Assembly: GCA_963775425.1 (NCBI GenBank)
Contig: CAVZJB010000009.1
Location: 336,616 to 394,389, forward strand
Reading direction: 5' to 3'
DNA length: 57,774 bases
DNA from: an uncultured delta proteobacterium
Lineage (GTDB): Bacteria > Myxococcota > UBA727 > VGSZ01
Part shown: positions 6,675 to 27,614 of the stretch, one piece after another
How positions within the stretch are numbered: position 1 is the first letter of the stretch
How the letters are laid out: the number at the start of each line of letters is the position of its first letter
Program-made: the position numbers and the translations under genes
Notes under the pieces: generated by a model
Told to the model about the DNA's origin: nothing
The model's input: only the letters and a program-made list of their open reading frames with translations
Databases searched by the model: none

Positions 6675-6746
6675 AGAGGTCCCCTGGCTCGCCCCGGGGC
6701 CGCCGGCCCGCTTCGAGCGATGCGCGCCCCACGAGGGCGGCGAAGC

Positions 6747-9417: not shown

Positions 9418-9428
9418 CCGGGCTCCTT

Positions 9429-11504: not shown

Positions 11505-11514
11505 CGGGGCTTCC

Positions 11515-11540
11515 GTGTTCACGACTCGTGCCACGAGCGC
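11515..11540 (-). promoter_or_regulatory. conserved 15-nt element TGGCACGaGTCGTGA upstream of flhA (copy 1 of 2)
   Basis: Minus-strand reading ...GCTCGTGGCACGAGTCGTGAACACGGAAGCCCCG-ATG. Contains a TGGCAC (-24-like) hexamer and the inverted repeat CACGA-g-TCGTG. The same element recurs at ~12497-12520 upstream of the second fliA-family gene. Coordinates approximate. Confidence 0.4.
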
Positions 11541-11661
11541 GGCGCTCGAGGAGCGCATGACAGCGCGACGTCGTCATCGCGCCGACGCTTTCGTGCGCGC
11601 AAACATTTGACGCCGCGCCATGCTGTTGACGACGACGAATGCCGCGGTGACGACGACGAAT

Positions 11662-11706
11662 TGAAAAAAGACGAAGCCGGCACTCCGTGAGGAGTGCCGG
11701 CTTCGA
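11662..11706 (-). terminator. intrinsic terminator downstream of the second fliA-family gene
   Basis: Perfect 14-bp stem GAAGCCGGCACTCC / GGAGTGCCGGCTTC with a GTGA loop. Read on the minus strand it is followed by TCTTTTTTCAATTCG. Lies about 45 bp after the stop at 11748. Coordinates approximate to a few nt. Confidence 0.7.
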
Positions 11707-11747
11707 GGGACGACGTCGCGGGGGGGAAACGACGCGCCCCTGGGGGA

Positions 11748-12461
11748 TCAAGCGAGGTCGATGTCGTCGACGAGCTCGGCGCGGAGCTTGATGATGGCCT
11801 GGCCGTGGAGCTGGCAAGCGCGCGACTCGGTGATCTGGAAGATCATGCCGATCTGCTTCAGCGTGAGCTCCTCGACGTAGTAGAGCGAGAGCAACTGGCG
11901 CGTGCGGAGCGGGAGGCGCGCGATGGCGGCGGTGAGGCGCTGCTTACGCTCACGCAACTCGAGCGCCTGGTTCGGCGTGGGCGTCTCGCCGTCGAAGGAA
12001 TCGAAGCCGTCCTCGCGGAGGTCTTCCACGCTGACGACGCCGGCGACGCCGCCGACGGAGCGCGCGGAGACACCGAGGTACCCGGCGAGCTCCGACGAAT
12101 CGGGCGCGTGGCCGAGCGTGTGCTTGAGCTTGCGGTCGGCCTCGTCGAGGCGACGGTTGCGCGCCCGCACCGACCGCGGGAGCCAGTCCATCGCGCGGAG
12201 GTGGTCGAGGATGGCGCCCCGGATGCGAATCTCCGCGTACGCCGGGAAGGTCTCGGCGCGCCCCGCGTCGAAGCGCTGCGCGGCGTCCATCAAGCCGATG
12301 GTGCCGGCGCCGACGAGGTCGTCGAGGTCCACCACGCTGGGCAGCCGGCGCGCGATCTTCTTCGCGACGCGACGGACGAGGGGAAGGTGCTCGTCGACGG
12401 AGAGGGTCTCGGTGGTGGTGGCGGCGGCGGCGGCATGAGCTGTGTTCATCATCGGGTTCAC
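11748..12461 (-). CDS. second FliA/WhiG-family (sigma-28-like) sigma factor
   Basis: 237 aa (GTG start with GGGAAG upstream). Region 2 GTIGLMDAAQRFDAGRAETFPAYAEIRIRGAILDHLRAMDWLPRSVR and region 4 YVEELTLKQIGMIFQITESRACQLHGQAIIKLR parallel the first fliA but are clearly divergent. Separated from flhA by a terminator. Confidence 0.85.
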   Translation of the reverse strand: MNPMMNTAHAAAAATTTETLSVDEHLPLVRRVAKKIARRLPSVVDLDDLVGAGTIGLMDAAQRFDAGRAETFPAYAEIRIRGAILDHLRAMDWLPRSVRARNRRLDEADRKLKHTLGHAPDSSELAGYLGVSARSVGGVAGVVSVEDLREDGFDSFDGETPTPNQALELRERKQRLTAAIARLPLRTRQLLSLYYVEELTLKQIGMIFQITESRACQLHGQAIIKLRAELVDDIDLA

Positions 12462-12494
12462 CTTGCGCTTCCCTGCGCAGGCATCCCTTACTCA

Positions 12495-12522
12495 CGACGC
12501 GTGCCAGCGATTTCGCTGCGTC
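12495..12522 (-). promoter_or_regulatory. conserved 15-nt element TGGCACGcGTCGTGA upstream of the second fliA-family sigma gene (copy 2 of 2)
   Basis: Minus-strand reading TGGCACGCGTCGTGAGTAAGGGATGCCTGCGCAGGGAAGCGCAAG-GTG. Identical to copy 1 except the central base. The -12 position reads GA rather than GC, so a canonical sigma-54 promoter is doubtful. The palindromic CACG-N-(G)TCGTG favours a dimeric regulator site. Confidence 0.4.
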
Positions 12523-12697
12523 CGGACGCGAAGCAGCCACGCGGGGGGAGTCGCGCGGACCTCAGCCGGGCCGGTTTGGCGAGGGTGCGCTCGACCCACC
12601 GGGGGTCGGTCGTACTCGGGTAGACCTGCTCATCGATCGTGGCGGGGCACGCGGGGGCCGAGCCCCGCCGCACGAAGCGCGCGGACGAGCCAACGCT

Positions 12698-14143
12698 CTA
12701 CAGAGATTCGCCCTCGCCGGACGTGGAGGTCTCCCCGCCGAGGCCGGACTCGCGGAGCAGGCGCTTGAAGTTCGAGCAATCCATGCCGGCGTCGCGCGCG
12801 GCCTGCGAGATGTTTCCGCCGGAGGCTTTGAGCTTGGCGTTCAGATACGTGCGCTCGAACGCGGAGAGCGTCGCCTTCTTGGCCTGCGCGTAGGGGAGGT
12901 GCGCGACGCCGGCGGCCTCGACGTCGGCGAGCGGGACCGCGCCGCCGATGCCTGGCGGGAGCTGGGCCGCGTCAATCTCCTGGCCGGGGCACAACACGAT
13001 GGCGCGCGCCACGGCGTTTTCGAGCTCGCGCACGTTACCGGGCCAGTCGTGGGTGGTGAGGGCGTGGACCGTGGCGTCGGAGAAGCCGTTGACGCTCTTC
13101 TTCATCCGCTCGCGGTGCTTCAGCAGGAAGTGGTGCGCGAGCAGCATGATGTCCTCGGGCCGCGACGCGAGCCGCGGCAGGTCGATGGCGAGGACGTTGA
13201 GCCTGTAATAGAGGTCTTCGCGAAACGTCTTCTTCTGGATGGCGGCTTCGAGGTCGACGTTGGTGGCGGCGATGACGCGAACGTCCACGATCACCACGTC
13301 GTTGCTGCCCACGGGCTTGATCTCGCCCTCCTGCAGCGCGCGCAGCAGCCGCACCTGCGTGGCGGCCGAGATGTCACCGATCTCGTCGAGGAAGAGCGTG
13401 CCGCCGTCGCTCGCCTCGAACAGCCCCTTGCGGTTGGACACCGCGCCGGTGAAGGCGCCCTTCACGTGGCCGAACAGCTCGCCCTCGAGCATGCTCTCGG
13501 AGAGCGCCGAGCAATTCACCGCGTGAAACGGCTTCTTTGCCCGGTCGGAGCGGCGGTGGATGGCGCGCGCCACCAGCTCCTTGCCCGTGCCGCTCTCCCC
13601 CCGCACGAGCACCGTGGCCGGCGTCGGGCTGACGGCTTCGATGAGCTGGAAGACCTCGCGCATCTTGGCGCTTTGCCCGATGAGCTCCTCGAAGCCCTCC
13701 TTGGCCTCGAGCATGCGCTCGAGGTTGTTGTTGCGCGCGATGAGGCGGTGATGCTCGAACGCGCGCCGCACCGTGAGGACAATCTTCTCGAGCGAGTCGA
13801 AGGGCTTGGTGAGGTAGTCGAACGCGCCAGCCTTCACCGCCTCCACCGCGGTCTCCACAGACGAGCTGGCGGTCATCATCACCACGGCCAGGTGGGGGCG
13901 ACGATTCTTGATGTCTTTGAGGATTTCGAGCCCGTTGATCTTCGGGAGCATGACATCGAGGACGGCGACGTCGACCGCGCCGTCTTCGCTCAGAGTGCGG
14001 TGCGCCTCCGCGGCGTCGGCAAATCTCACCACCTCGCACCCGCCGCGCTCGAGAACGCGGCTCACCGCCATGAGGACACCGGGATCGTCGTCGACGACGA
14101 CCACCCTCGGCCGGTCCTGATTCCCGTCATTGCTCGCCGCCAT
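12698..14143 (-). CDS. sigma-54-dependent response regulator (NtrC/FlrC-type: REC + AAA+ sigma-54 activator + HTH)
   Basis: Internal ATG (MAASNDGNQDRPRVVVVDDD). Receiver domain, then GESGTGKELVARAIH (Walker A), GAFTGA, GTLFLDEIGD, NVRELEN, and C-terminal HTH (NISQAARDAGMDCSNFKRLL). The upstream 156 codons of the ORF-track reading look like wrong-frame text. Confidence 0.9.
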   Translation of the reverse strand: MAASNDGNQDRPRVVVVDDDPGVLMAVSRVLERGGCEVVRFADAAEAHRTLSEDGAVDVAVLDVMLPKINGLEILKDIKNRRPHLAVVMMTASSSVETAVEAVKAGAFDYLTKPFDSLEKIVLTVRRAFEHHRLIARNNNLERMLEAKEGFEELIGQSAKMREVFQLIEAVSPTPATVLVRGESGTGKELVARAIHRRSDRAKKPFHAVNCSALSESMLEGELFGHVKGAFTGAVSNRKGLFEASDGGTLFLDEIGDISAATQVRLLRALQEGEIKPVGSNDVVIVDVRVIAATNVDLEAAIQKKTFREDLYYRLNVLAIDLPRLASRPEDIMLLAHHFLLKHRERMKKSVNGFSDATVHALTTHDWPGNVRELENAVARAIVLCPGQEIDAAQLPPGIGGAVPLADVEAAGVAHLPYAQAKKATLSAFERTYLNAKLKASGGNISQAARDAGMDCSNFKRLLRESGLGGETSTSGEGESL

Positions 14144-14302
14144 GGCCGGCGACTCTAGACCACAACGAGCTGCCTTCGCGAGCGCGAGGGGGTTCGTCCG
14201 CACCCGCCCGTGTCGTTTGCACCCCGCGCATCGACGACGCGATTGGGGCGGCCGCGACCCTGCGCAGACCTGCGACCTCGCGATCGGATGCGCCGGCGCG
14301 CG

Positions 14303-14318
14303 TGGCATGATCGCTGCG
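14303..14318 (+). promoter_or_regulatory. candidate sigma-54 (-24/-12) promoter, TGGCAT-N5-CTGCG, upstream of the metalloprotease operon
   Basis: TGGCATGATCGCTGCG has correct GG-N10-GC spacing and matches about 10 of 12 consensus positions (TGGCACG-N4-TTGCW). It is divergent from the NtrC-type activator gene, a common enhancer-binding-protein/target layout. Caveat: only about 13 nt separate it from the annotated ATG at 14331. Coordinates approximate. Confidence 0.35.
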
Positions 14319-14330
14319 TAGTGGCCCGGC

Positions 14331-15062
14331 ATGGCCACGACGATCCTCACCATCTTGAGCATCGCGATGGCGTCTTCGACGGCGACGTCGGTGGCGACGA
14401 GCGATGCTCCGAAACCCAAACGTTGGACGGCGTCGTCGTTCACCCTCGAGCTCGAAAACACCGAGCCGTTCATCAAGACCAAGGACGTTGAGACCGCGCT
14501 TCGGTCCGCCGCCACGACGTGGAACATGGTCGGCGCCGGCACCGAAATCCAGGTCGAGCGCGCGCACGGAGAAGACGAGGACGGCGACAGCATCGCTCTC
14601 GACGGCGTCAATCGTGTGACGATCTATCGCGGGAGCTGGCCCTATCCGCCGCAGGCCGGCGCGGTCACCGTGGCGTGGGCGCGGAAGACGGCGGGGGCCG
14701 AGGACGAAGTGGTCGAGGCTGATCTCGCGCTCAACCCCGCCTTCGATTGGAGCCTCGATCACGGCGACAGCTCGGGGCTGTACGACCTGAAGAACGTGCT
14801 CACGCACGAGCTCGGACACGCGCTCGGGCTCCCGGATATCAAGGATCCGCGCGACGCGACGATGTTCTACTTGATCCTGCCTGGGGAGACGCTCAAGCGG
14901 GATCTGACGGGAACGGACACGAGCATGCTCCTCAAGCTCTACGACGACATCGATGACGGCGCCGAACCCGGCTGCAACGCCGCCGGCGGCGAGACCACCA
15001 CCGTCGGGGCAGCACTTCTGCTCAGCCTGCTCGCGGTTCGCCGCCGCCGGAGCTCAAAATGA
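14331..15062 (+). CDS. secreted zinc metalloprotease (HExxHxxGxxD, matrixin-like) with a MYXO-CTERM-type C-terminal sorting tail
   Basis: 243 aa. HELGHALGLPD zinc motif. C-terminus PGCNAAGGETTTVGAALLLSLLAVRRRRSSK is Cys + Gly-rich + hydrophobic helix + Arg cluster, matching the MYXO-CTERM architecture. Weak N-terminal signal-like segment. High GC3 throughout. Confidence 0.75.
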   Translation: MATTILTILSIAMASSTATSVATSDAPKPKRWTASSFTLELENTEPFIKTKDVETALRSAATTWNMVGAGTEIQVERAHGEDEDGDSIALDGVNRVTIYRGSWPYPPQAGAVTVAWARKTAGAEDEVVEADLALNPAFDWSLDHGDSSGLYDLKNVLTHELGHALGLPDIKDPRDATMFYLILPGETLKRDLTGTDTSMLLKLYDDIDDGAEPGCNAAGGETTTVGAALLLSLLAVRRRRSSK

Positions 15063-15394
15063 ACGACAAGTACCTGTTCCTCATCCGCGACGACGCGTTC
15101 GGCAAGACCAGCGCGCGTACGCTCGGCACGCAGTTGATGGCCCTCGGCCACACCGTGTTCCTTTCGGACACCGACGAGGACCTCGAAGTCTTCGGAGAGG
15201 TCGTCGACGCCTTCGTCGAGATCAGGCCGGACGGAGACGCGCCGCAAGCGGTCCTCTACGCGTGGGCAGACCACGCGCGGCCGTCGCGGCAGGCCTTGCT
15301 CGAGAAGGCGACGGTACTGCTGCCCGCGGACGACGCCGCGCTCAGCGTGTTTTCGAAGAACCTCGTCGCTGCTGGTGAAGGGAGAACGCAATGA
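15059..15394 (+). CDS. hypothetical protein (possible degenerate receiver-like fold)
   Basis: 111 aa. ATGA overlaps with both neighbours. High GC3. KYLFLIRDDAFGK resembles a receiver N-terminus, but no clear phospho-acceptor context. Confidence 0.55.
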   Translation: MNDKYLFLIRDDAFGKTSARTLGTQLMALGHTVFLSDTDEDLEVFGEVVDAFVEIRPDGDAPQAVLYAWADHARPSRQALLEKATVLLPADDAALSVFSKNLVAAGEGRTQ

Positions 15395-15879
15395 CCTCGA
15401 CCGTCAAGATCCTGTTCGTCGACGATGAACAGCTCATCCTCAACGCTCTCAAACGGACGCTTCGCCGCGAAGGCTTCGAGCTCTTTTTCACGGCGGACCC
15501 GCTCGAGGTCCAGAAGCTCGTCGGCGAGCACCGCATCGACATCGTGGTCAGCGACCACATGATGCCGCAGATGACCGGCGTCGAGGTCCTCGCGCTCGTG
15601 CGCCGCCTCCACCCCAACACCACCCGCATCATGATGACGGGGCAGGCGGACCGTCAGGCCACCATCCGCGCCATCAACGAGGGGAACATCCACCGCTTCA
15701 TCGAGAAGCCGTGGGACGACAACGAGCTCAAGAACGTCCTCCACGAGGCCGCGCGCTCCATCCTCGTCCGCCGCGCCGCCAGCGCCGGACCCGACGTCGC
15801 GATCGCGAGCAAGAGCTTCCACCGCACCATCCTCCGCGATGCGCGTGGCGCAATCGTCCTCGACGCAGCGGCGAAGTGA
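15391..15879 (+). CDS. single-domain response regulator (CheY-like receiver)
   Basis: 162 aa: KILFVDDEQLILNALKRTLRREGFEL ... DIVVSDHMMPQMTGVEVL ... IMMTGQAD ... KPWDDNEL, a complete REC domain. Start overlaps the upstream stop (ATGA). Confidence 0.9.
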   Translation: MTSTVKILFVDDEQLILNALKRTLRREGFELFFTADPLEVQKLVGEHRIDIVVSDHMMPQMTGVEVLALVRRLHPNTTRIMMTGQADRQATIRAINEGNIHRFIEKPWDDNELKNVLHEAARSILVRRAASAGPDVAIASKSFHRTILRDARGAIVLDAAAK

Positions 15880-15883
15880 CGTC

Positions 15884-17602
15884 GTGAAGGCCGCGCTCTC
15901 CGCACTCCTGATCGGGGATCCGGGCTCGCCGTGGATGGCGCGCACGACCTCCATCCTCGGGCAATACGGGGCCGACTTCATCGTCGCCGACGGGTTTGGT
16001 GAGGCCACGGAGGCGTTTTCGGACGTCGACGTGGTGGTGGTCCACGTCACGCCGGGCGGAGACCCGCTCGTCGAAATCGCAGCCCTTTGGGAGGTCCGGG
16101 CGCAGGTGCCCGTCATCTTCCTCGGCGACGACATCGACGACGATCTCCGCTCGGCCGCGTTCGAGGCCGGCATCGCCCATGTCACGCGCGGAGAGCCCAC
16201 GCCCGAAGAGCTCATCGCGATGATGCACATGGCGACCGAGCAGAGCAGGGTCGGCTCGCCGGAGCTCGTGCGCGCCATGTGCCGGACCATGTGCACGCTG
16301 TCGACGCTGGTGGCGTCGGCGAAGGACACGAGCTTCCTCGGCGCCGCCGTGCTCCAGGTGAGCGCGCTGTTTCAGGCCCCCATCGTGTCGATCATGCTGT
16401 TCGACGACGACGATCCCCACGCGCCCCTCCGCGTGGTGGCCCAGGTGGGCCTCGGCGCGGGCGCGGTCTTCTCGTCGCCGCGGCGAGGCGGCGTGGCCGA
16501 GCGCGTGGCGCACGCGCGCGTCCCGCGCATCATCCTGCGCGACGCAAAGCGCGACGACGCGTTCCCGGGCGTGGCGGGCCGCGCCGAGATCACGGGTTCC
16601 ATGTGCGTGCCCATTCCGGCCACCACCTTCGGTGGCGCGGTCGCGCGCCCGCGCGGTGTCATCAACGTCGCCAAGACCCGGCCGTGCGCCGTGTTCACGC
16701 CGCGCGACCTCGACGTGTGCGTCTCTCTCGCCGGACTCATCGGCGACGCCCTGATGCTCATGGAGAGCCGCGAGCTCCACAACACCCTGCAGCAGCGCCT
16801 TCAGGCCGTCGAGCGCTTGAGCACCGTCGGCGAGATCGCCGGCGGCATCGCGCACGAGGTGGCCAACCCCATCAGCTGCGTGCGCGCCAACGTCGACACG
16901 ATGATCGAGTATATGCGCGACCTCGGGCCCGTCCTGCAGCAGGCCGACGAGGACCACCCGGAGCTGCGCCCCATCCTCGACGACCTTCCGTCGGTGCTGT
17001 GCGAGACCTGGGAGGGCCTCGCGCGGGCCGAGGACGTCGTGCGCCAGATGAAGGCGCTGGTTCGCATGAACGGACCCGTCGGGCGCGACGAGCGCGTGTC
17101 CCTCTCCCACCTCGTCGAGGACAACATGCGGCTGCTCCGGCCCCGGCTGCGGGTGCCCGTCGAGCTCAACCTCGAGAACGACGTCGTGGTGCGGGGCTCC
17201 ACCGTGGAGCTGTCGCAGGCGTTCCTGAACCTCATCGTGAACGCCGCCGACGCGTGCGAGGAGCGACACCTGAAAGAGCCCGAGCTCGAGCCCAAGGTGA
17301 AGGTCGGCGTGGCCGTGGACGGCAAGAACGCCGCCATCCACGTCGTCGACAACGGCGCCGGTATGCCCGCGGACGTGATGAAGCGGATCTTCCTGCCGCT
17401 GTTCACCACCAAGAGCGGCGAGCGTGGCACCGGCCTCGGGCTCAGCATCGTTCGTCGCGTGGTGGAGGAGCACGGCGGCAACGTACGCGTGCACTCCACG
17501 CCCAACTCCGGGACCGCGTTCATCGTCACGCTGCCCCTGATGGACGGCGCCGCGGACTCGCGGGCCCCGGTCGACGCGGACGTCATCGGCCCGATGGCTT
17601 GA
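15884..17602 (+). CDS. sensor histidine kinase with a GAF-like sensory region (HisKA + HATPase_c)
   Basis: H-box ERLSTVGEIAGGIAHEVANPIS. N, G1 and G2 boxes present (LIVNAADA, VDNGAGMP, GTGLGLSIV). GAF-like stretch upstream. Start set to the in-frame GTG at 15884 just after the receiver stop. The ORF-track ATG at 15839 would overlap the receiver gene by 41 nt. ATG 15935 is an alternative. Confidence 0.8.
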   Translation: MKAALSALLIGDPGSPWMARTTSILGQYGADFIVADGFGEATEAFSDVDVVVVHVTPGGDPLVEIAALWEVRAQVPVIFLGDDIDDDLRSAAFEAGIAHVTRGEPTPEELIAMMHMATEQSRVGSPELVRAMCRTMCTLSTLVASAKDTSFLGAAVLQVSALFQAPIVSIMLFDDDDPHAPLRVVAQVGLGAGAVFSSPRRGGVAERVAHARVPRIILRDAKRDDAFPGVAGRAEITGSMCVPIPATTFGGAVARPRGVINVAKTRPCAVFTPRDLDVCVSLAGLIGDALMLMESRELHNTLQQRLQAVERLSTVGEIAGGIAHEVANPISCVRANVDTMIEYMRDLGPVLQQADEDHPELRPILDDLPSVLCETWEGLARAEDVVRQMKALVRMNGPVGRDERVSLSHLVEDNMRLLRPRLRVPVELNLENDVVVRGSTVELSQAFLNLIVNAADACEERHLKEPELEPKVKVGVAVDGKNAAIHVVDNGAGMPADVMKRIFLPLFTTKSGERGTGLGLSIVRRVVEEHGGNVRVHSTPNSGTAFIVTLPLMDGAADSRAPVDADVIGPMA

Positions 17603-17697
17603 TCAGCGCGGCCGCTCCCTCCGGTCGCTGATCCGCGCGGCCGCTCCCGGGTGAGCAAGTCCGCTCACGCGAATGGATCAGGCTCAAGTCCACCGCC

Positions 17698-19393
17698 GTG
17701 CCGCCGATGGTGTGCGCAGAAGCGAACACATTGGAGGCAGTTGTGGTTTCAGTCGCACTTCAGATCCTCGACGTCCTGCGGGAAAACGGCGTCGACACCG
17801 TCTTCGGCATCCCCGGCGGCGCCATCTCACGCGTCTACGCCGAGCTGGTGAACCGCCCCGGCATCCGCGTGGTGAACGCGACGCACGAGACGAACGCCGT
17901 CTTCATGGCCATCGGGCATGCGCTCGCCACGGGCAAGCCCGCGGTGGCGTTGACGACGTCGGGCCCGGGCTTCACCAACGCCCTGACCGGGCTCGCCTCC
18001 GCGCAGGCGGACGGCGTCCCCGTGCTCGTCATCTCCGGCGAAGTGCCGCGCTCCGCCTTCGGGCGGGGGGCGTTGCAGGAGGGGATCGTCCTACGGCTTC
18101 GACGCGCTCGCCATGGCGCGGCCCGTCTGCAAGTTCGCCACGCAACTGGCGCGCCCCAACGCGGCGGTGACCACCGTTCGCAAGGCATTGGCGACGATGC
18201 AGTCCGGCAAGCCGGGGCCGGCGTTCATCTCCTTGCCGCTCGACATCTCCAACGCCGACGTTGCGCAGCAGACCTACGCCGGCCACCCGCACCTCACGTT
18301 CGAGATCGATCAGGTGGCCTGCCGCAACGCCGCGGAGGTCCTCTGCAAGGCGAAGCGGCCGCTCCTCGTCGTCGGCGCGGGCGCGCGGGCCACCAAGGAT
18401 CGCCAGGCGATCGCGGAGCTGGCGCACCGCACGCGCACCCCCGTGGCGGTGACGCCCAAAGGCAAGGGCGTGTTCGCTGAAGACGACGAGCTCTACCTTG
18501 GTGTGCTCGGCTTCGGCGGACACGAGTCCGTGATCGACTACCTGAAGCAGGAGCCCGACGTCATCCTCGTGGCCGGCTCGTCGCTCAATGACTTCGCCAC
18601 GAACGCGTGGACCCCGCTGCTCGGCACCGCCAAGACCTTCATCCAGATCGACGTCGACGCGGGGCAGCTCGGCAAGAACTACCCGGTCGACATCGGCCTG
18701 CTCGGACCGCTGCACGAGATCATGGGCGAGATGCTGCTTCACACCTGCGACGGCTGTGATCGCGAGCCGTATCCGCGCCTGCGCTTCCAGACCGTTCCCC
18801 CTTCGCCGAGCGGAGCCATCACCACCGTCGACGCCGTTCAGATCATGAACGAGGTGTGCCCACGCGACGCGGTGTTCACCTCGGACATGGGAGAGCACCT
18901 CGGCATCGCCCTCCACTTTCTGCGCACCCGCACGCCGGGATCCTTCGTGACGTGCCTCGGCTTCGGCTCGCTCGGATCCGGCGTGGTCTCCGCCATCGGC
19001 CTGGCGCTCGGTGATCCTCGCCGTCGTGCGTACGCCATCTGCGGCGACGGTGGCTTCCTCATGTCCGGCAACGAGCTGCAGAGCGCGGTGTTGCACGAGG
19101 CGCCGGTCACCTTCGTCCTCATGAACGACAGCCGCTACAACATGTGTCACCACGGCATCAAGGCGCTCTACGGGGCGACCGGCGTCTGCGACATCGGCGC
19201 GGTCGACTTCGCGAAGGTGGCTGACGCGTTCGGGGCCCAGGGTCGCATCGTGCGCACGCCGCGAGAGCTGGTCGACGGGCTCCGCTTGCGCGGGGGGCCC
19301 GTCGTCCTCGACGTCAGAATCGATCCGGAGGTGCGCTTGCCGGCGAGTCAGCGCGAAGCAGGTCTCAAGAGCTTCAAGGATGGTGCAAAGTGA
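17698..19393 (+). pseudogene. thiamine-diphosphate-dependent enzyme (acetolactate-synthase/benzoylformate-decarboxylase family), reading frame broken by a +1 shift near 18080
   Basis: Frame 1 (17698-) gives the TPP_N domain (VDTVFGIPGGAISRVY...TSGPGFTNALTGLASAQADGVPVLVISGEVPRSAFGRGALQEG) and then degenerates into Arg-rich text. A +1 frame continues correctly with SSYGFDALAMARPVCKF (equivalent to the IlvB QEVDTYGISIPITK segment), then the central and TPP-binding domains (GDGGFLMSGNELQSAV). The junction lies in a GAGGGGA run. Genuine frameshift or sequencing error cannot be told apart. Confidence 0.6.
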
Positions 19394-20475
19394 AGTCTGC
19401 AGGAATTCAATCCATCGCCGTCGGCTTTCCCAAGACGGTTCGCAACAACGACTGGTTCCGCGACAATTACCCCGACGCGCTCGCGGCCATGGAGAGCAAG
19501 GCGCTCGCGCAGGTGTTCAGCACCAAAGGGGCGACGGAGAGCACGCGCGCCTTCGACCAGGCGATGACGCAGTACCTGCGCGACCCGTTCCGGGGAACGA
19601 AGCGTCGGCGCGTGTTGGCGCCGGGCGAGAGCCAGATCGAGCTCGAGCGGGACACCGCGCTCGAAGCGCTTTCGAAGGCGAACCTCGCCGTGGAAGACAT
19701 CGACGTCATCTTGACGTCGGCGTTTCCGACGGAGAACGTGGGCGTCGGTGACGGCGTGTTCCTCGCGAAGGCGCTCGGCACGCGGCTGCCCGCGTTCAAC
19801 GTCGAGACCGCCTGCAGCGGCGGCCTCGCGAGCCTCCAACTCGCATCTGCGATGGTGCAGTCGGGACAGGCAAGGAACGTGCTCGTCGTCGTCTCCTGCA
19901 TCTACTCGCGCTGCTGCGATTGGAACGACACGCTGACGTGGTTCCTCGGCGACGGCGTCGGCGCGTACGTCGTCGGCGAAGTGCCCAGAGGTGAAGGCTT
20001 CCACGCGTTCCATGCCCTGAATACCGCGGAGTCCTGCGGCAGCTTCTCCTATGAGCTGGAGATCGAGCAAGGCGCCCCGCGCGCCGTGATCCGGTCGAGC
20101 GCGGCGGCGGGCAAGGCGCTCCGCGACGTCACGCCACGCGCGATCCGTGATGCCTGCGGCGGCGTCCTCAAGAAAGCGAGGCTCACGCTGGACGACATCG
20201 ACTTGTTCGTCCCGAACACGCCGTTGGCGTGGTTCGCCGAGCTCTTTGCGGACACGCTCGGGATCCCCGTGGAAAAGACCGTGTCGACCTACGAGGACTA
20301 CGCCAACATCGGCCCCGCGCTCAACCCGGCGAACCTGCACCGCGCGCTCGTGGATGGGAGAGCGGGCCCCGGGACGCGAGTCCTGTTCTTCTCGATCGGC
20401 TCCGTGTCGACCGCGGCGGCGGCGGTGGCCACGCTCGGGGACGTGGGCGTCGGCTCGCTCGAAGAGACAGGTTGA
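19390..20475 (+). CDS. KAS III (FabH)-like condensing enzyme, thiolase superfamily
   Basis: 361 aa. Active-site Cys context AFNVETACSGGLASLQLA. C-terminal YEDYANIGPALNPANLHRAL resembles the FabH Asn motif. The expected VPHQAN His motif appears as VPNTPLA. GTG start overlaps the upstream stop (GTGA). Confidence 0.75.
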   Translation: MKSAGIQSIAVGFPKTVRNNDWFRDNYPDALAAMESKALAQVFSTKGATESTRAFDQAMTQYLRDPFRGTKRRRVLAPGESQIELERDTALEALSKANLAVEDIDVILTSAFPTENVGVGDGVFLAKALGTRLPAFNVETACSGGLASLQLASAMVQSGQARNVLVVVSCIYSRCCDWNDTLTWFLGDGVGAYVVGEVPRGEGFHAFHALNTAESCGSFSYELEIEQGAPRAVIRSSAAAGKALRDVTPRAIRDACGGVLKKARLTLDDIDLFVPNTPLAWFAELFADTLGIPVEKTVSTYEDYANIGPALNPANLHRALVDGRAGPGTRVLFFSIGSVSTAAAAVATLGDVGVGSLEETG

Positions 20476-20518
20476 CCGGAGTGCACGTCGATGGATTCGA
20501 TCGGTTAGCATCCCCACC

Positions 20519-21118
20519 GTGGTTCTCAGCGCACCTCCCGAGGGCTTCACGATTCCGGATTTCAGCGCGCCGCTCGACGTCGACGCGTACCTGAGTCGGC
20601 TCCCCGCGGGCGCGACGTTCAAGGGCACGGTGGCGGCGGCGACGTTGAACACCCTGCGGACCGCGAACGTCGCGCCACCGACGACCAAGGTCTACACGGA
20701 ATTCCGCGACTACCCGATGCACGAGCTCCTCGAGCTGAACATCGCGAGCGCGCGGGCGCTCTGTCCCGACCTTCCTGTGCGGGAGGGGCTGAGGAGAATC
20801 GGCCGCGCGCTCTTTCCGACGTTCGCGCAGACGCTCATCGGGAGGGTCATGTACGGGGTCTTTGGCGGCAACGTCTCGGCGATCTTTCGGCTCGCCAACA
20901 AGAGCTTCGAGATCACACAGAACACCGGCAAGGTGCGCACCGAGGTCCTCGGCAAAGACACCGTGCTGCTCGCCTTCACCAACACCTACACGTTCCTGAG
21001 TAGTTATCACTACGGCGTGCTCGAGGGCGCGCTCGAGCGTTGCGGGGTGCGCGGCGAGGTGTGGTTCCGCGAGGCGTCGCCTTCCGAGGGAGAGTTCTTC
21101 GTCGCGTGGTCGCCGTAG
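20519..21118 (+). CDS. hypothetical protein resembling the Myxococcus-type paralogous family TIGR02265 / DUF2378
   Basis: 199 aa from GTG (VVLSAPPEGFTIPDF). RALCPDLPVREGLRRIGRALFPTFAQTLIGRV ... YHYGVLEGALERCGVRGEVWFRE matches my recollection of that family. Start is uncertain: no ATG in frame between the fabH-like stop and this GTG. High GC3. Confidence 0.45.
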   Translation: MVLSAPPEGFTIPDFSAPLDVDAYLSRLPAGATFKGTVAAATLNTLRTANVAPPTTKVYTEFRDYPMHELLELNIASARALCPDLPVREGLRRIGRALFPTFAQTLIGRVMYGVFGGNVSAIFRLANKSFEITQNTGKVRTEVLGKDTVLLAFTNTYTFLSSYHYGVLEGALERCGVRGEVWFREASPSEGEFFVAWSP

Positions 21119-21202
21119 AAGCGGAATTCTCGTTGTCGGTCAGAATGCAGAGTCGCGCGCGGTCGATGGACGACGCCGTCGGCGTCCCTTAGGCTGTGCG
21201 CC

Positions 21203-21583
21203 GTGAAGGCCTCGTTGGAACACCTCGCCGCGGCGGTCGCCTCCATGGCCGAGGCGAGCGAAGCGGCTTCGCAGGCGTTATTGACCGCCGGCTACGACAC
21301 GGAGGACATGCCGGTCATCCGGGAGCAGGTCGGGCGCGCGGCCGGCACCGTCGAGGGTCTGTGCACCATCCTCGGCGGCGAGGGAGAGCGGGACGAGGTC
21401 TTCGTTCTCCTTCACCAGATCAACAATCAGCTCACCGGAATCCTCAGCCTCACGTTGCTCGTCAAGGACGACCTCGGGAGCGACCACCCGTCGCGCGCGG
21501 CGCTCGACACGCTCGACGTCGTCTCGCGCGACGCCGCGGCGGTGGTGAGAGACGTCGCCGCGCGGCTCAAGCGCGGGGCTTAG
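21203..21583 (+). CDS. small stand-alone histidine-kinase DHp (HisKA-like) domain protein, possible phosphotransfer or kinase-modulating protein
   Basis: 126 aa. LLHQINNQLTGILSLTLLV resembles an H-box (phospho-acceptor His plus NxLT). No ATPase domain follows. High GC3, while the antisense 150-aa ORF is low-complexity. Confidence 0.55.
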   Translation: MKASLEHLAAAVASMAEASEAASQALLTAGYDTEDMPVIREQVGRAAGTVEGLCTILGGEGERDEVFVLLHQINNQLTGILSLTLLVKDDLGSDHPSRAALDTLDVVSRDAAAVVRDVAARLKRGA

Positions 21584-21766
21584 GGTCCTCGAATGAACAC
21601 GTCGGTCGAAGATCGCGGTCGAGGCGCGCCGATGGCGAGGCGCGAGGAGGGAGCGTGGCCGTCGCCACGTGACCGACGGCAACGAAGCCAGCGGCGATGG
21701 ATCGGCCGCGAGGGCGATCGAGTTGTTCATTCGGGGGCCCTTGGGCGCCCGTCCTGACGAGCGCGC

Positions 21767-23668
21767 TCAGAGCTCGATGCGCTCGCCGTGGCGGGTCATC
21801 ACCTCTGTCACCGCCCGCGTGAGGTCCGCGGGCACGAACGGCTTCTCCAGGCGCACGTTCTGCGTGTTCTCAAAGAGCTCACTCGCGCGTGGCGTGAACG
21901 CGTTGCCCGTCATGAACACGATGCGGGACTTCATGTCGGGCGCGGCGTCGTCGAGGCCCTCGTAGAGATCGACGCCGGAGAAGCCCGGCATCATCAGGTC
22001 GCACAGCACCACGTCGTAGCGCTCGCCGTTGGCGAGCCTGTCGAACGCGGCGCGGCCGCGCCCCTCGACCACGACCTCGATGCCGTGCTTGGTGAGGATG
22101 CGCCGAATGGCGGTGCAGATGAGCGTCTCGTCGTCCACGACGAGGACGCGGGCGCGCGACATGGCCGCGGCGGCGCTTCTGCGCTTGTCCGTGACCGCCG
22201 CGTGGACCGGCTCCGCCGGCGGCAGGGAGATGACGACCGCCGTGCCTTCGTCCGGAACGCTGTCGGCAGTGATGGTGCCGCCGAAGCCGGTGACGATGGT
22301 GTGCGCGATGGACAGGCCGAGGCCGAGGCCTTCGCCCACCGGCTTTGTGGTGAAGAAGGGCTCGAAGATGCGGCCGATGTGTTCCGCGGGGATGCCCTTG
22401 CCGGTGTCGCTGATGCGAATCACGACGCGATCGCCCTCGAGCCCGGTGGACACGGAGATAGTGTGCGCAGGCTTGTCGTCGAGCGCCTGCACCGCGTTGG
22501 TGAGCACGTTGACGAGCACTTGCACGAGCTTGCCCTCGTCGGCGAGGACCGGCGGCGCCGAGCCGAGGCGGAGCTCGAGCTCCGCGCGGTGCTTGATCTC
22601 GGTGTTGACCAGGCGCACAGCGAGGGACGCCGCGCGGTTGACGTCGACGAGGAGCTTTCCGTCCGCCTCCGCGCGCGTGAACACCTTCATGTCCTTGACG
22701 ATGGTGGCCGCGCGGGCCGCGCCGTCGCGGGCCTCGCCGAGCGCGTCGAGCGACTCCGACAGCGCGTCGAGGGAGGCGCGCGACGCGTTGGTGGGGGCGA
22801 GCTCCTCGGTGAGGCGCGTGAGCTCGCCGAGCGCGAATTCGATGTTGCTCGTGACGAACGCCAGGGGGTTGTTCAGCTCGTGCGCGATGCCTGCCGCCAG
22901 TGTCCCGATGGACACCATGCGGTCCGCGAGCGCGAGGCGTTGGGCCAGGCGCCGCTGCTCGGTGATGTCGCGAAACACGACGACGACGCCGTGCAGGGCG
23001 CCGGACTCCTCGATGATGGGAGAAGCGTTGTGCTCGATGATGATGCTCGGCCCGGATCGCGGCACCAGTCGCAAGACCGGCTGGCTCGTCTCTTCAGCGC
23101 TCTTTTCGTTCGCGTCGGCGGTGACGGCGAAGACGTCGTTCAGCGGACGGCCGAGCGCGTCCGCTTCCGACCAACCCGTGAGCTGCTCGGCGGTGGGGTT
23201 CATGAACGTGATGTGCGCGACGTCGTCGGCGGTGATGACGGCGTCGGCGATGGAGCGCAGCGTGGTGGTGTACCAACGCTCGCGCGCCGCAGATTGCCGC
23301 TCGATGTTGCGGCGGAACAGCGCCAGCTCGAAGGCGGACGCGAGCTCCCGCCCCGACACCGGCTTGAGGGCGTAGCCCGCGGGGTGCGCGCGCGCCGTTG
23401 TGCTCAGGACGTCGTGATCGAGCGAGGAGAGGAGCAGCACCACGGGGGCGTCGACGGCCGCTTGCAGGGCCTCGACGTCGTCGAGACACGAGTCGAGCCG
23501 GCCCTCCGGCACGTCGACGAGGATGACGTGTGCGGTGACCGCCGGCCCGTCCTCCAGCGCGTCCGCCGCCGTGCTCGACGACGTCACGTCGTACCCGAGA
23601 CCGGACAGGAGGGGAATCAACGTTGCGCGCAACTGCTCGTCATCGACGAGCAGCAGGACCGAGTGCAT
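21767..23668 (-). CDS. hybrid sensor histidine kinase (REC - PAS - HisKA - HATPase_c - REC)
   Basis: Internal ATG MHSVLLLVDDEQ (N-terminal receiver, Asp in HVILVDVP). PAS-like segment. H-box GTLAAGIAHELNNPLAFV. ATPase boxes (VLTNAVQA, DTGKGIP, GLGLGLSI). C-terminal receiver (RVLVVDDETLI...VVLCDLMMPGFSG). The upstream 227 codons of the ORF-track reading are wrong-frame text. Confidence 0.9.
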   Translation of the reverse strand: MHSVLLLVDDEQLRATLIPLLSGLGYDVTSSSTAADALEDGPAVTAHVILVDVPEGRLDSCLDDVEALQAAVDAPVVLLLSSLDHDVLSTTARAHPAGYALKPVSGRELASAFELALFRRNIERQSAARERWYTTTLRSIADAVITADDVAHITFMNPTAEQLTGWSEADALGRPLNDVFAVTADANEKSAEETSQPVLRLVPRSGPSIIIEHNASPIIEESGALHGVVVVFRDITEQRRLAQRLALADRMVSIGTLAAGIAHELNNPLAFVTSNIEFALGELTRLTEELAPTNASRASLDALSESLDALGEARDGAARAATIVKDMKVFTRAEADGKLLVDVNRAASLAVRLVNTEIKHRAELELRLGSAPPVLADEGKLVQVLVNVLTNAVQALDDKPAHTISVSTGLEGDRVVIRISDTGKGIPAEHIGRIFEPFFTTKPVGEGLGLGLSIAHTIVTGFGGTITADSVPDEGTAVVISLPPAEPVHAAVTDKRRSAAAAMSRARVLVVDDETLICTAIRRILTKHGIEVVVEGRGRAAFDRLANGERYDVVLCDLMMPGFSGVDLYEGLDDAAPDMKSRIVFMTGNAFTPRASELFENTQNVRLEKPFVPADLTRAVTEVMTRHGERIEL

Positions 23669-23732
23669 GACCGTGAATCTAGCAGAGGTCAGGAGGCCCG
23701 GGCCGTCTTGTGCGTCACCGGAGATCGGGGCG

Positions 23733-23762
23733 GCACAGGCCGGGCTTAAGTGCACAGGCCGG
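23733..23762. repeat. direct repeat GCACAGGCCGG x2 (19-bp register) in the divergent kinase / HDOD intergenic region
   Basis: CGGCACAGGCCGGGCTTAAGTGCACAGGCCGGCGCG read from the sequence. Lies between the divergent starts at 23668 (-) and 23871 (+). Coordinates approximate. Confidence 0.6.
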
Positions 23763-23870
23763 CGCGCCGATGACCGATCCGACGTGTCAGCACCAGCCGC
23801 TCCGAGGAACGCCTTGGTCGCCGACCTCTCGGCGGTGGAGCCACGCGCGCTCGCGAGCGTGGAGCGGTTG

Positions 23871-24653
23871 ATGGACGCCCTCGCCCGGGGGCGGCTCCCC
23901 CTGCCGGTGCTGCCCGCGGTGGCCATGGAGCTGTTCGAGCTCGCCTCCGACGCCGACATCCCCTTCGAGCGGCTCGCCCGGCGGGCGGTGACGGACCCGA
24001 ACGTCGCCGCCCGCATCATGGCGCTGGCGTCGTCGTGTGCCTTTGGTGTCAACCGGCCCACCGGCGTGAAGGACGCCCTCGCGCGCATCGGCCTCGACGG
24101 TGTGCGCCACGTGGCGTTCGACATCGCGTACTCCGCCCGCGTTTTGCGCCGCGGGCCGCACCTGCCTCTCGTGGAGCGCGCAGTCCGACATGCGCGCACC
24201 GCGAGCGCGCTGTGTCGCCTGCTCGCGCGCGACGTCGGCATCGCGCCCGGCCCCGCCGCCCTCGCAGGTCTGCTGCACGCGCTCGGGGCCATCGTGATCA
24301 TCGATGACTTGAGCAAGGCGCGGCCGCCCGTGACGGGCCGCGCGGCCATCCTCGCCGTCCGCCGCTTGCACGGCTGGACAGCGGCGCGCGTGGCGGCGCG
24401 CCACCAGGTCGATCCCGATGTGGTCGACGCCCTGGACGAGCATCACCTTCCGACGTCGCGCACGCCGCTGTCTGCGCTCTTGCAGCTCGCCGACCTGATC
24501 TCGCCGAGCGAGCCGGGGGGGCGGGCAATTCCTCTCGGAGACGCGCTCGCGAGGACCGGCCTCCCGCTCGCCGAGCGGGCGGTGCGCGAGCGGCTCTCGC
24601 CGCTGCTGGCGACGTTCGAGGAGTCCCGCCGGGTCCTGCTGCCCGCGTCGTAG
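23871..24653 (+). CDS. HDOD-domain protein (first of two)
   Basis: LPLPVLPAVAMELFELASDADIPFERLARRAVTDPNVAARIMALASSCAFGVNRPTGVKDALARIGLDGVRHVAFDIAYSARV fits the HDOD pattern. Start set to ATG 23871 (GGAG 6 nt upstream). The ORF-track start at 23523 would overlap the divergent kinase gene, and GTG 23784 is an alternative. Confidence 0.6.
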   Translation: MDALARGRLPLPVLPAVAMELFELASDADIPFERLARRAVTDPNVAARIMALASSCAFGVNRPTGVKDALARIGLDGVRHVAFDIAYSARVLRRGPHLPLVERAVRHARTASALCRLLARDVGIAPGPAALAGLLHALGAIVIIDDLSKARPPVTGRAAILAVRRLHGWTAARVAARHQVDPDVVDALDEHHLPTSRTPLSALLQLADLISPSEPGGRAIPLGDALARTGLPLAERAVRERLSPLLATFEESRRVLLPAS

Positions 24654-26030: not shown

Positions 26031-26033
26031 GAC

Positions 26034-26789
26034 ATGGACTTCGCGACGCTCGGTGGCTTGATCTTCTCGCTGGGGTGCATCCTCGGTGGGCAGGCGCTCG
26101 AGGGAGGCCACGCGGGCTCCCTCATGCAGCTCACCGCCTTCATCATCGTTCTCGGCGGCACCATCGGCGCCGTCTCCGTCGGGTCGCCCCCCGCCCTGAT
26201 CAAAGACGGCGCTGCGATGATCAAGCTCGCCCTGTTCCCGCCCAAGGACGACACCGCCAAGCTCACGGGGGAGCTGCTGGAGCTCGCGACGCTGGCGCGC
26301 AAGGAAGGCGTGCTCGCGCTCGAGCCCAAGCTCGCCGAGCTCGAGGACCCGTTCTTCAAGAGGGCGCTGCAGATGATCGTCGACGGCGTCGACCGCGCGG
26401 TGACGCGCGACATCCTCGAGGCTGACGCCATTCACGCCGCGAAGAGCGAGCTCGCCGCGGCAAAGCTCTGGGAGCAGGCGGGAGGGTACTCGCCCACCGT
26501 CGGCATCCTCGGCGCCGTCCTCGGCCTCATCCACGTGATGGAGAACCTGTCCGATCCATCCAAGCTCGGCGGCGGTATCGCCACGGCGTTCGTCGCCACG
26601 GTCTACGGCGTCGGTACCGCCAACCTCTTCTTCTTGCCGGTTGCCAACAAGCTCAAGCTGCGTATCCAGAACGCCAAAGACCGCAAGATCCTCGTCATCG
26701 AGGCCGCGCTCGGCATCCAGGAGGGCCTGCCCACGAGCGTCCTCGCGGAGAAGCTCACCTCCTACGGGGGCAAGCATGAGCAGACTTGA
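26034..26789 (+). CDS. motA: flagellar stator protein MotA (MotA/TolQ/ExbB channel family)
   Basis: 251 aa with 4 TM segments and the conserved plug/TM3-TM4 region (ILGAVLGLIHVMENL...IATAFVATVYGVGTANLFFLPVANKL). Confidence 0.9.
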   Translation: MDFATLGGLIFSLGCILGGQALEGGHAGSLMQLTAFIIVLGGTIGAVSVGSPPALIKDGAAMIKLALFPPKDDTAKLTGELLELATLARKEGVLALEPKLAELEDPFFKRALQMIVDGVDRAVTRDILEADAIHAAKSELAAAKLWEQAGGYSPTVGILGAVLGLIHVMENLSDPSKLGGGIATAFVATVYGVGTANLFFLPVANKLKLRIQNAKDRKILVIEAALGIQEGLPTSVLAEKLTSYGGKHEQT

Positions 26790-27558: not shown

Positions 27559-27614
27559 CGGATCTCCGATTCCCGAGCCTTCAGAAGGCCGGACCGTCGC
27601 CGATGTGACGGTGC

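Follow-up and report, generated by a model that had tools for sequence, protein, structure and literature searches.

The question raised by this locus is whether a TPP (ThDP) enzyme gene, the KAS-III-like gene that overlaps it and the regulatory genes around them form a module that makes and perceives a small signal molecule. The block belongs to an uncultured delta proteobacterium and was analysed within a window of 57,774 nt, i.e. the whole stretch of DNA under study. The plus-strand ORFs of the original prediction were recovered at the positions it gave (Table 1), as were the overlaps that chain the first four genes (ATGA at 15059, ATGA at 15391 and GTGA at 15876), the 95-bp gap between the histidine kinase and TPP genes, and the GTGA in which the TPP stop overlaps the KAS start at 19390. 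With a probability of roughly 55%, we favour the reading that the block serves to make and perceive a butenolide-like signal, in which a synthase of the furanolide kind is combined with perception via a DUF2378 protein and a hybrid kinase.

Table 1. Features of the block and its flanks, with coordinates in the window.
Feature	Position	Strand	Domains and remarks
NtrC-type response regulator	12701..14140	-	Response_reg + Sigma54_activat (Pfam); divergent from block
Matrixin-like (M10) metalloprotease	14331..15062	+	Peptidase_M10 PF00413, E 2.8e-9
111-aa protein	15059..15394	+	Translationally coupled (ATGA) on both sides
Single-domain response regulator, receiver + short tail	15391..15879	+	PF00072, E 1.7e-24
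Cytoplasmic GAF histidine kinase	15876..17602	+	GAF_2 + HATPase_c; GTG start
20-nt direct repeat, two copies, TGATC[A/C]GCGCGGCCGCTCCC	17600..17648	.	95% identical, 29-nt spacing
TPP enzyme gene	17698..19393	+	TPP_enzyme_N/M/C domains; broken by 1-nt insertion ~18085
CybF-like KAS-III-fold enzyme, putative acyltransferase/cyclase	19390..20475	+	ACP_syn_III + ACP_syn_III_C
DUF2378/TIGR02265 protein, predicted heme-less H-NOX-like ligand-binding fold	20519..21118	+	
126-aa four-helix-bundle protein	21203..21583	+	Invariant H-box-like motif LH..NN.LTG, His71
PAS hybrid histidine kinase-receiver	21767..24349	-	PAS + HisKA + HATPase_c + Response_reg; first ~230 ORF codons putative

A two-gene cassette related to furanolide synthases

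The core of the block is a gene pair whose adjacency goes far beyond chance: in 80 of 83 independent loci, a TPP gene lies immediately upstream of a KAS-III-like gene. Loci with the pair span Myxococcota, Cyanobacteria, Actinobacteria, Planctomycetota and Acidobacteriota, and the 83 have no conserved third gene in common. The suggestion that a carboligase next to a KAS-III-type enzyme builds acyloin- or butenolide-like molecules agrees with CybE/CybF (PMC12395478, PMC8777810) and with the NzsH/NzsJ precedent (PMC7466098). The pairing itself is thus not undescribed: cassettes of the CybE/CybF kind, comprising an acyloin synthase and a furanolide synthase, have already been published.

CybE performs an acyloin condensation, while CybF carries out O-acylation, a Morita–Baylis–Hillman step and a hydride shift (PMC12395478, PMC13288894). 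This way of making butenolides needs just two enzymes and was worked out only in 2022. Furanolides linked to cassettes of this kind include cyanobacterin, the nostoclides and the enhygrolides, and the nostoclides have been described as cell-density-dependent chemical mediators (PMC9324945). In myxobacteria, only the cybE and cybF homologues are co-localised, and these have been proposed for (deoxy)enhygrolide biosynthesis; PAL/TAL and CoA ligase are missing from the proposed myxobacterial producers, too (PMC8777810). Across our comparison, PAL/TAL and CoA ligase genes as in the cyb cluster accompany the pair in only 16–17 of the 83 loci, and tblastn found no PAL/TAL, CoA ligase or reductase genes in the window.

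Compared with FabH structures, the window KAS carries Cys-Asn-Asn in place of the Cys-His-Asn triad (ACSGG, FVPNTP and YANIGP versus ACSGF, PHQAN and GNTS in FabH). This signature is present in 74 of 86 members of the KAS family, among them those of E. salina SWB007 and cyanobacteria; that CybF chemistry needs it is taken from the literature. The window enzyme is 40–47% identical to CybF-clade homologues, including that of Enhygromyxa salina SWB007 (L087), over its full length and with the N-terminal extension included. For both enzymes, only neighbour-joining trees, which carry no support values, were computed; in that of the KAS family, the window enzyme forms a clade with L005, L008, L009 and L014 that is sister to the large CybF clade, and thus stands outside the clade of the Enhygromyxa homologue and the cyanobacterial homologues from cyb-like loci.

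The TPP enzyme shares 54–65% identity with members of its own clade (clade A) and 30–34% with the TPP partners of CybF-clade KAS genes, from which clade A is also separate in the TPP tree. Clade-A enzymes without a KAS gene were seen as well, beside an LCM methyltransferase or between halogenases, and a metagenome scan with the TPP alignment returned at least two clade-A loci, with generic ALS patterns among the matches listed. Among solved proteins, BbmA (E 1.9e-94) and CsmA (E 1.5e-71) match it best, with any ALS ranking lower; these two have been named alpha-hydroxy-beta-keto acid synthases (PMC13307353), and a literature search for BbmA and CsmA did not find their primary description. As a close relative, BbmA was rejected, since it belongs to a third TPP clade, in whose members' loci no KAS match occurs; it is only the best solved homologue.

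Judged by these sequence relationships, the window cassette appears to be an uncharacterised sister lineage of the furanolide machinery. Given the position of its KAS beyond the CybF clade and the different clade of its TPP enzyme, the product may not be a furanolide. More generally, the scan portrays the ThDP/KAS cassette as widespread and mobile, and reveals two or more uncharacterised sister lineages in which the ThDP enzyme is a different one.

Interruption of the TPP gene

The TPP enzyme, originally taken as one ORF, is split between two frames by an extra base near 18085, with frame 1 covering 17698–18084 and frame 2 covering 18086–19393. The GC3 phase changes at this boundary, DNA alignment with two homologues places one surplus base within GGGGATCG, and the repaired junction aligns without gaps to BbmA from the PDB. 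Programmed frameshifting was dismissed because homologues read the junction in a single frame. With the 1-nt insertion as assembled, the module would therefore be inactive here, unless the assembly is in error.

It is conceivable, if doubtful, that the frameshift is real and the block a decaying relic whose TPP gene is a pseudogene, so that the module makes nothing in this organism. A surplus base in or adjoining a GGGG run, as found here, is typical of sequencing error or very recent slippage; both halves of the gene are strongly coding (GC3 about 0.9) and free of further stops, the repaired protein matches BbmA end to end, across the ThDP-binding GDG...N region, and the genes downstream are intact. 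What argues for decay is the additional base itself, seen relative to both homologues, together with the protein database, where a 426-aa C-terminal fragment is the sole TPP entry for the contig and no intact identical copy was found (the closest intact homologue is 81% identical). A Logan contig with the KAS gene begins 67 bp upstream of the KAS start, short of the frameshift.

Conserved and lineage-specific neighbours

The original prediction looked for the sensing part of the signalling module in the CheY-like receiver and GAF histidine kinase directly upstream. Their receiver, GAF and HATPase_c domains are indeed present, and the receiver resembles those of NosR/HD-GYP-type regulators. They are not conserved partners of the cassette, however: the receiver and kinase genes, like those of the protease and the 111-aa protein, are all missing from the syntenic relative L005, and we propose that the four genes are a lineage-specific addition. 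As expected for a MYXO-CTERM-like metalloprotease, the M10 protein has a C-terminal tail with Cys, a hydrophobic stretch and RRRR, and it weakly matches the model of myxosortase-dependent metalloproteases; at L170, a homologue (32% identity) with a similar tail adjoins the cassette. The 111-aa protein, rightly called unknown, found no match in Pfam or NCBIfam and no tblastn match in any of the fetched loci. The 95-bp gap ahead of the TPP gene holds the 20-nt direct repeat, a possible site of regulator binding; promoter and terminator scans did not exceed shuffle expectation and carry no information for this GC-rich genome.

Three other partners do accompany the cassette in more than one lineage, namely DUF2378, the small four-helix protein and a hybrid kinase-receiver. 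The window and L005 have in common TPP–KAS–DUF2378–small protein, a convergent hybrid kinase, and NtrC-like and sigma genes. The hybrid kinase of the window lies convergent to the block, beyond the coordinates first considered, and is 53% identical to its convergent counterpart in L005 and 33% identical, across kinase and receiver, to the operon kinase of Sandaracinus. The order DUF2378–TPP–KAS–hybrid HK/RR is found, as one tight operon, in Sandaracinus amylolyticus (L088) and two other loci, a JGI contig and a MAG. DUF2378 and the hybrid kinase accompany the cassette in two separate KAS lineages, in different gene orders. Further homologues of KAS, TPP and DUF2378 were found on contigs of equal size (2961, 4602 and 4121 bp), and therefore probably on the same contigs.

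The NtrC-type regulator (REC plus sigma-54 AAA+ activator) is likewise a conserved neighbour. At the end of the L005 contig, a partial gene precedes those of a sigma factor and the TPP enzyme; over 153 aa, its product shares 72.5% identity with the C-terminal part of the window regulator, which in this genome heads a fliA-flhA-flhF operon within a flagellar gene cluster. Myxobacterial genomes are very rich in two-component genes, and some adjacency is therefore due to chance.

The gene after the KAS does encode a DUF2378/TIGR02265 domain, as predicted, with its start corrected to the GTG at 20519 (199 aa). The predicted structure is an H-NOX-like fold, at a sequence identity to H-NOX proteins of just 12–15%. 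A heme-ligating proximal His is not apparent, with no invariant His in the family alignments and none in the window protein between residues 93 and 139 of the modelled sequence, and a heme-bound gas is therefore unlikely as ligand. Two myxobacteria respond to the quinolone signal HHQ with induction of a DUF2378 gene (PMC9257966). The 126-aa protein had been described as a free DHp protein; it has no Pfam or NCBIfam match, but does bear the invariant H-box-like motif. Its roughly 10 small homologues (117–134 aa, E <= 0.001) come from a search of 1.84 billion representative proteins, and with a predicted monomeric four-helix bundle it is a candidate phosphotransfer or kinase-modulating protein.

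These contexts bear on a reading that we consider rather unlikely, namely that of an ordinary specialised-metabolite cassette for an antibiotic or allelochemical butenolide of the sort proposed for the enhygrolides and cyanobacterin, whose two-component and DUF2378 genes only regulate expression or are unrelated. The activities ascribed to known furanolides are chiefly antibiotic, cytotoxic or algicidal (PMC12395478), the sister cassettes of Polyangium and Nannocystis are followed by an NmrA-like reductase without DUF2378 or HK, and a Pseudonocardia pair lies within a PKS/P450 cluster. Yet mere regulation of, or chance proximity to, such a cassette fits poorly with the recurrence of DUF2378 and the hybrid kinase in two KAS lineages with differing orders, with the overlap of called genes in Sandaracinus (L088) and, at KAS/HK, in L170, and with the four-gene units of L088 and L090, which stand amid housekeeping genes without tailoring, resistance or export genes.

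Other enzymatic readings of the pair

We regard as very improbable a carbazole-type cassette (NzsH/NzsJ/NzsI = CqsB3/CqsB1/CqsB2), with the coupling of indole-3-pyruvate to pyruvate as the supposed task of the ThDP enzyme and the addition of a 3-hydroxyacyl-ACP as that of the KAS-III-like enzyme. The enzyme pairing and reaction order are the same, and homologous three-gene sets have been reported in Sorangium and Scytonema (PMC7466098), but the block and its immediate flanks hold no carbazole synthase (cyclase), ACP, second KAS III, aminotransferase or prenyltransferase. Moreover, the KAS is followed by DUF2378, whose model is H-NOX-like rather than aromatase/cyclase-like, and a conserved third gene emerged from none of the comparisons over the 83 loci. 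With DUF2378, the four-helix protein and kinases as neighbours, this cassette type was rejected; an entry identifiable as NzsJ or CqsB1 was not found in the PDB.

Primary metabolism, i.e. an acetolactate synthase large subunit beside a housekeeping FabH, is suggested by the best NCBIfam names (acetolactate synthase and beta-ketoacyl-ACP synthase III) and by source annotations that label homologues ALS or KAS III, but is practically untenable, as TIGR00118 gives the repaired TPP enzyme 312.7 bits where its cutoff is 538.35, all other NCBIfam ALS models likewise place it under their cutoffs, the KAS reaches 112.4 against 292.1 (TIGR00747) and 127.1 against 249 (PRK09352) with Asn replacing the catalytic His of FabH, neither ilv (ilvN/ilvC) nor fab genes occur near the block, whose neighbours are flagellar and signalling genes, and the pair acts like a mobile two-gene cassette across many contexts. 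The pair is neither the bona fide IlvB nor the housekeeping FabH that the original prediction had named as grounds against itself.

A model for signal synthesis and perception

In the favoured reading, that of a signal synthesis and perception module, the two enzymes at the core of the block would together synthesise a small molecule, akin to the CybE/CybF furanolide machinery. As to substrates and product, we infer from this precedent that the KAS-III-fold enzyme would use the conserved Cys of its Cys-Asn-Asn site to acylate the intermediate of the ThDP enzyme, with an acyl- or cinnamoyl-type CoA from elsewhere in the cell as the putative donor, and would then close a butenolide-like ring. 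DUF2378 most likely binds a small hydrophobic ligand and may thereby modulate the neighbouring hybrid histidine kinase-receiver, as H-NOX does with its partner kinases. A relaying or modulating role may fall to the 126-aa four-helix protein, which carries an invariant His, and the conserved NtrC-type regulator is a candidate output.

A more specific version of this model is speculative and, on balance, improbable: a self-contained circuit in which the clade-A ThDP carboligase and the CybF-like enzyme would produce a butenolide-like autoinducer, DUF2378 would be its receptor and gate the hybrid kinase, and phosphate would flow via the 126-aa protein to the NtrC-type sigma-54 activator. If such a circuit existed, it would provide a first function for the myxobacteria-wide DUF2378 family, as small-molecule receptors of two-component systems. 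The linkage of the cassette to DUF2378 and a hybrid kinase offers a testable hypothesis for the role of DUF2378/TIGR02265, for a possible use of diffusible butenolide-type signals by myxobacteria and for the perception of furanolide-type mediators. As a cultivable organism with the tight operon of all four genes, Sandaracinus amylolyticus would be an experimental entry point.

Comparison with known systems

With CybE/CybF of the cyanobacterin, nostoclide and maculalactone pathways, the window cassette shares the position of the ThDP gene directly upstream of the KAS-III-fold gene, the 40–47% identity of its KAS to clade members and the retained Cys/Asn/Asn site. It resembles the Plesiocystis and Enhygromyxa pairs in that the two genes alone are co-localised, without PAL or CoA ligase. 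It differs in the sister-branch position of the KAS and in its ThDP partner, which is of another clade and 30–34% identical. In the literature that we found, the cyb, ncl and mac clusters are not described as linked to DUF2378, to a small His-motif protein or to a hybrid kinase.

Xenocyloin biosynthesis in Enterobacterales likewise combines a ThDP acyloin synthase with ketosynthase-like acyltransferases (XclA/XclB/XclC), but is not known to have linked sensor genes. The carbazole Nzs/Cqs systems differ in gene content, as the window lacks a carbazole synthase, ACP, aminotransferase and prenyltransferase.

On the perception side, H-NOX proteins are encoded with partner histidine kinases, e.g. 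HnoX-HnoK, and DUF2378 parallels them as a stand-alone protein of ~190 aa with a predicted H-NOX fold, whose gene adjoins that of a (hybrid) histidine kinase or shares an operon with it, although it lacks their conserved heme-ligating His. The nostoclide mediators of Nostoc provide a parallel as furanolides with a cell-density-dependent regulatory effect; to our knowledge, no receptor is known for them. Finally, in the gamma-butyrolactone and butenolide autoregulator systems of actinomycetes, too, a dedicated enzyme makes a small lactone with regulatory genes nearby, but whereas the actinomycete systems rely on the synthase AfsA and a TetR-type receptor, perception here would proceed via a two-component pathway.

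Gene block and a broken reading frame

ORFs and GC content by codon position place the plus-strand genes of the block where the original prediction had put them, in a window of about 72% G+C. The overlaps and the gap also read exactly as claimed, the junctions being, in order, ATGA, ATGA, GTGA, a 95-bp gap and GTGA.

Features of the gene block and its surroundings in the window
Feature	Position	Strand	Remark
Flagellar genes upstream	8347-12491	-	FlhF, FlhA, FliA-like sigma factor
M10 (matrixin) protease	14331-15062	+	Tail: Cys, hydrophobic stretch, RRRR
111-aa protein	15059-15394	+	Without family match
Receiver domain	15391-15879	+	
GAF/HATPase_c kinase	15876-17602	+	
20-nt direct repeat	17600-17648		GAF kinase/TPP gap; TGATC[A/C]GCGCGGCCGCTCCC, two copies, 29-nt spacing
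TPP enzyme	17698-19393	+	Two frames
KAS-III-like protein	19390-20475	+	
DUF2378/TIGR02265 protein	20519-21118	+	
126-aa protein	21203-21583	+	
PAS hybrid kinase-receiver	21767-24349	-	Convergent to block
Flagellar genes downstream	26031-44637	+	MotA, MotB, sigma-54 activator, FliF, FliG, FliI, FlgE, FliM/N, FliP, FlhB
DUF6901 protein	46162-46800	-	
1128-aa protein	46961-50347		PAS, HisKA, HATPase_c, three receiver domains, GGDEF

The TPP gene, implicitly a single ORF in the original prediction, is in fact broken by one surplus base that had been overlooked, located in GGGGATCG by DNA alignment with two homologues. Its N-terminal domain runs in frame 1 to 18084 and the remainder in frame 2 from 18086, with a GC3 phase change at ~18050-18100. 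When joined, the halves yield a protein of 564 aa that aligns with the solved enzyme BbmA without a gap at the junction. The protein database entry for the contig holds only a 426-aa C-terminal fragment, and no intact identical copy was found in that database. Because both halves retain strong coding statistics and all motifs, the lesion either arose very recently or reflects a homopolymer-type assembly error.

Two further features of the DNA itself deserve mention: the 20-nt repeat ahead of the TPP gene may be an operator, and the G+C content of 14001-22000 (0.67-0.70, vs 0.73-0.76 across much of the remaining window) would fit a segment acquired separately.

Neither acetolactate synthase nor FabH

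The pair could in principle consist of two housekeeping enzymes, i.e. a bona fide IlvB and the FabH of fatty acid synthesis. The model for biosynthetic acetolactate synthase (ALS) gives the repaired TPP protein 312.7 bits, with a cutoff of 538, and no other ALS-like model places it above cutoff either; its best solved relatives, BbmA and CsmA, outscore all ALS structures. The KAS protein, at 112-127 bits, falls short of the FabH cutoffs (292 and 249). Its alignment with FabH structures shows PNTPL in place of PHQAN, with Asn substituted for the catalytic His; the Cys and the second Asn are retained. Neither ilv nor fab genes lie near the pair, whose flanks carry flagellar and signalling genes. 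These scores, the His replacement and the gene neighbourhood argue against both identities, the two that would have refuted the original prediction.

A KAS family coupled to TPP enzymes

The KAS protein has homologues in Myxococcota and Cyanobacteria and, in a few cases, in Actinobacteria, Planctomycetota and Acidobacteriota; together they form a family. A TPP-enzyme gene lies directly upstream in 80 of 83 non-redundant loci, and no third gene is conserved across them, the next commonest neighbours being CoA ligase (17), SDR (17) and aromatic ammonia-lyase (16) genes. The Cys/Asn/Asn pattern, as opposed to the Cys/His/Asn of FabH, is common to 74 of 86 family members. A cyanobacterial subgroup (P0097, P0104; L017, L046, L054, L071) lacks the active-site Cys, which is replaced by Gln or His, then Ser, and also the Asn that stands for His. 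The TPP gene is still upstream in its four loci, ~1 kb away in L071.

Linkage to sensing genes

In the closest relative with gene context (locus L005/L006; KAS and TPP each 65% identical to those of the window), the order is TPP-KAS-DUF2378-115-aa protein, with a PAS hybrid kinase-receiver gene next, in convergent orientation. The 115-aa protein is the orthologue of the 126-aa protein, a predicted four-helix bundle with an H-box-like motif (His71), and the kinase is 53% identical to the minus-strand ORF of the window. Upstream, L005 carries an NtrC-like activator, 72.5% identical to the window's within the portion that its contig covers, and a FliA-like sigma factor (57%); the M10 protease, the 111-aa protein, the receiver and the GAF kinase are all missing there. 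Because of this absence, the receiver and GAF kinase of the window are a lineage-specific insertion: they do lie immediately upstream, as originally stated, but are not conserved partners.

Three loci of the deeper KAS lineage carry DUF2378-TPP-KAS-hybrid HK/RR units: Sandaracinus amylolyticus (L088, with an intact TPP-KAS pair at 8001-10800), a JGI contig (L090) and a MAG (L170). The called genes overlap within the Sandaracinus unit and at the KAS/HK junction of the MAG; the JGI unit is flanked by ruvCAB and unrelated genes, and that of Sandaracinus lies near ribosomal protein genes. Across kinase and receiver, the Sandaracinus kinase and the hybrid kinase of the window share 33% identity. 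KAS, TPP and DUF2378 homologues also occur on contigs of equal size (2961, 4602 and 4121 bp), which, going by size only, suggests three further linkages. To our knowledge, a conserved association of the cassette with the DUF2378 protein, modelled as a heme-less H-NOX-like fold, and a hybrid kinase is undescribed.

PilZ-domain genes flank Sandaracinus-type cassettes (L170 3856-5087; L088 6569-7111 and 12467-12919), and L170 also encodes a homologue of the window's M10 protease, with a MYXO-CTERM-like tail. Such neighbours hint at a wider regulon tied to c-di-GMP and secreted proteases.

Other contexts differ. In Polyangium and Nannocystis, KAS is followed by an NmrA-like gene, and in Pseudonocardia the pair lies within a PKS/P450 cluster. 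There (L003, 2132-21101), a TPP gene of clade A, the clade of the window enzyme, and a KAS gene of the CybF clade neighbour two more KAS III genes, a CoA transferase, an enoyl-CoA hydratase, three P450s and PUFA-synthase-like PKS genes (PfaD, FabA domains), an arrangement suggestive of a larger biosynthetic cluster. Some clade-A TPP genes have no KAS partner. One is followed by an LCM-type methyltransferase gene in both Minicystis rosea (L089, 8001-10692) and Methylocapsa sp. S129 (L171, 6001-8655), a recurring pair whose TPP enzymes are 51-54% identical to the window's; another, on a soil metagenome contig (L091, 5439-10084), has flavin-dependent (tryptophan-type) halogenase genes on either side. 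Minicystis rosea has an additional, separate TPP-KAS pair (L070) with a CybF-clade KAS.

Flagellar surroundings

A flagellar gene cluster encloses the block. Cultivated myxobacteria are not known to be flagellated, which makes the cluster unexpected in a genome with MYXO-CTERM-like and DUF2378 genes. In L005, a DUF6901 gene (7225-7917) adjoins the hybrid kinase; its window orthologue (51% identical) lies ~22 kb farther off, beside the 1128-aa protein gene, and the mot/fli block (26-45 kb) is therefore absent at that position in L005. The orientation of the NtrC-sigma pair to the cassette is inverted between the two.

Proposed function

The analysis itself establishes the gene families, a TPP-KAS coupling that is obligate, the recurrent link to DUF2378 and the hybrid kinase, the fold predictions and the frameshift. 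We put the probability that the TPP-KAS pair is an acyloin-plus-acyl-transfer small-molecule synthase at about 0.8. Under the literature scheme, an acyloin would form first and then be acylated and cyclised to a butenolide; for a butenolide as the actual product we see roughly even odds. A signalling role seems somewhat less likely than not: if the window lineage makes a butenolide-like molecule, DUF2378 might bind it or a related ligand and gate the hybrid kinase, with the small His protein (126 aa) and the NtrC-like regulator acting downstream. The module should be readily testable in Sandaracinus.

Relation to known systems

The pair type is that of the published furanolide machinery. There, the TPP enzyme CybE joins two 2-oxo acids to an acyloin-type acid. 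CybF, whose annotation is 3-oxoacyl-ACP synthase, uses coumaroyl-CoA to O-acylate this acid and then achieves ring closure by way of a Morita-Baylis-Hillman-type step plus a hydride shift (PMC12395478, PMC13288894). Carbazole biosynthesis offers another precedent, as NzsH/NzsJ likewise combine TPP with KAS-III-like chemistry (PMC7466098). The class of chemistry originally proposed matches CybE/CybF, and the pairing, put forward as part of a possibly undescribed module, was already known. Among myxobacteria, Plesiocystis and Enhygromyxa have only co-localised cybE/cybF homologues, with (deoxy)enhygrolides as proposed products (PMC8777810); the KAS of the E. salina SWB007 locus (L087) is 42% identical to the window's. 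In Nostoc, furanolides are cell-density-dependent mediators (PMC9324945).

In neighbour-joining trees, built without support values, the window KAS groups with those of L005, a planctomycete MAG, Nannocystis radixulma and Polyangium sp., as sister to a large clade with cyanobacterial and Enhygromyxa sequences; the Sandaracinus type sits on a deeper branch. The TPP partners divide differently. Clade A (54-65% identical to the window) unites the window enzyme, its sisters, the Sandaracinus type, Pseudonocardia and some KAS-less loci, whereas those paired with CybF-clade KAS proteins make up a separate clade beside CsmA, 30-34% identical to the window, and BbmA falls into a third. Given this placement, the window cassette is a relative rather than a member of the furanolide cassette, its product may differ from a furanolide, and it belongs to an uncharacterised sister lineage of the described type.
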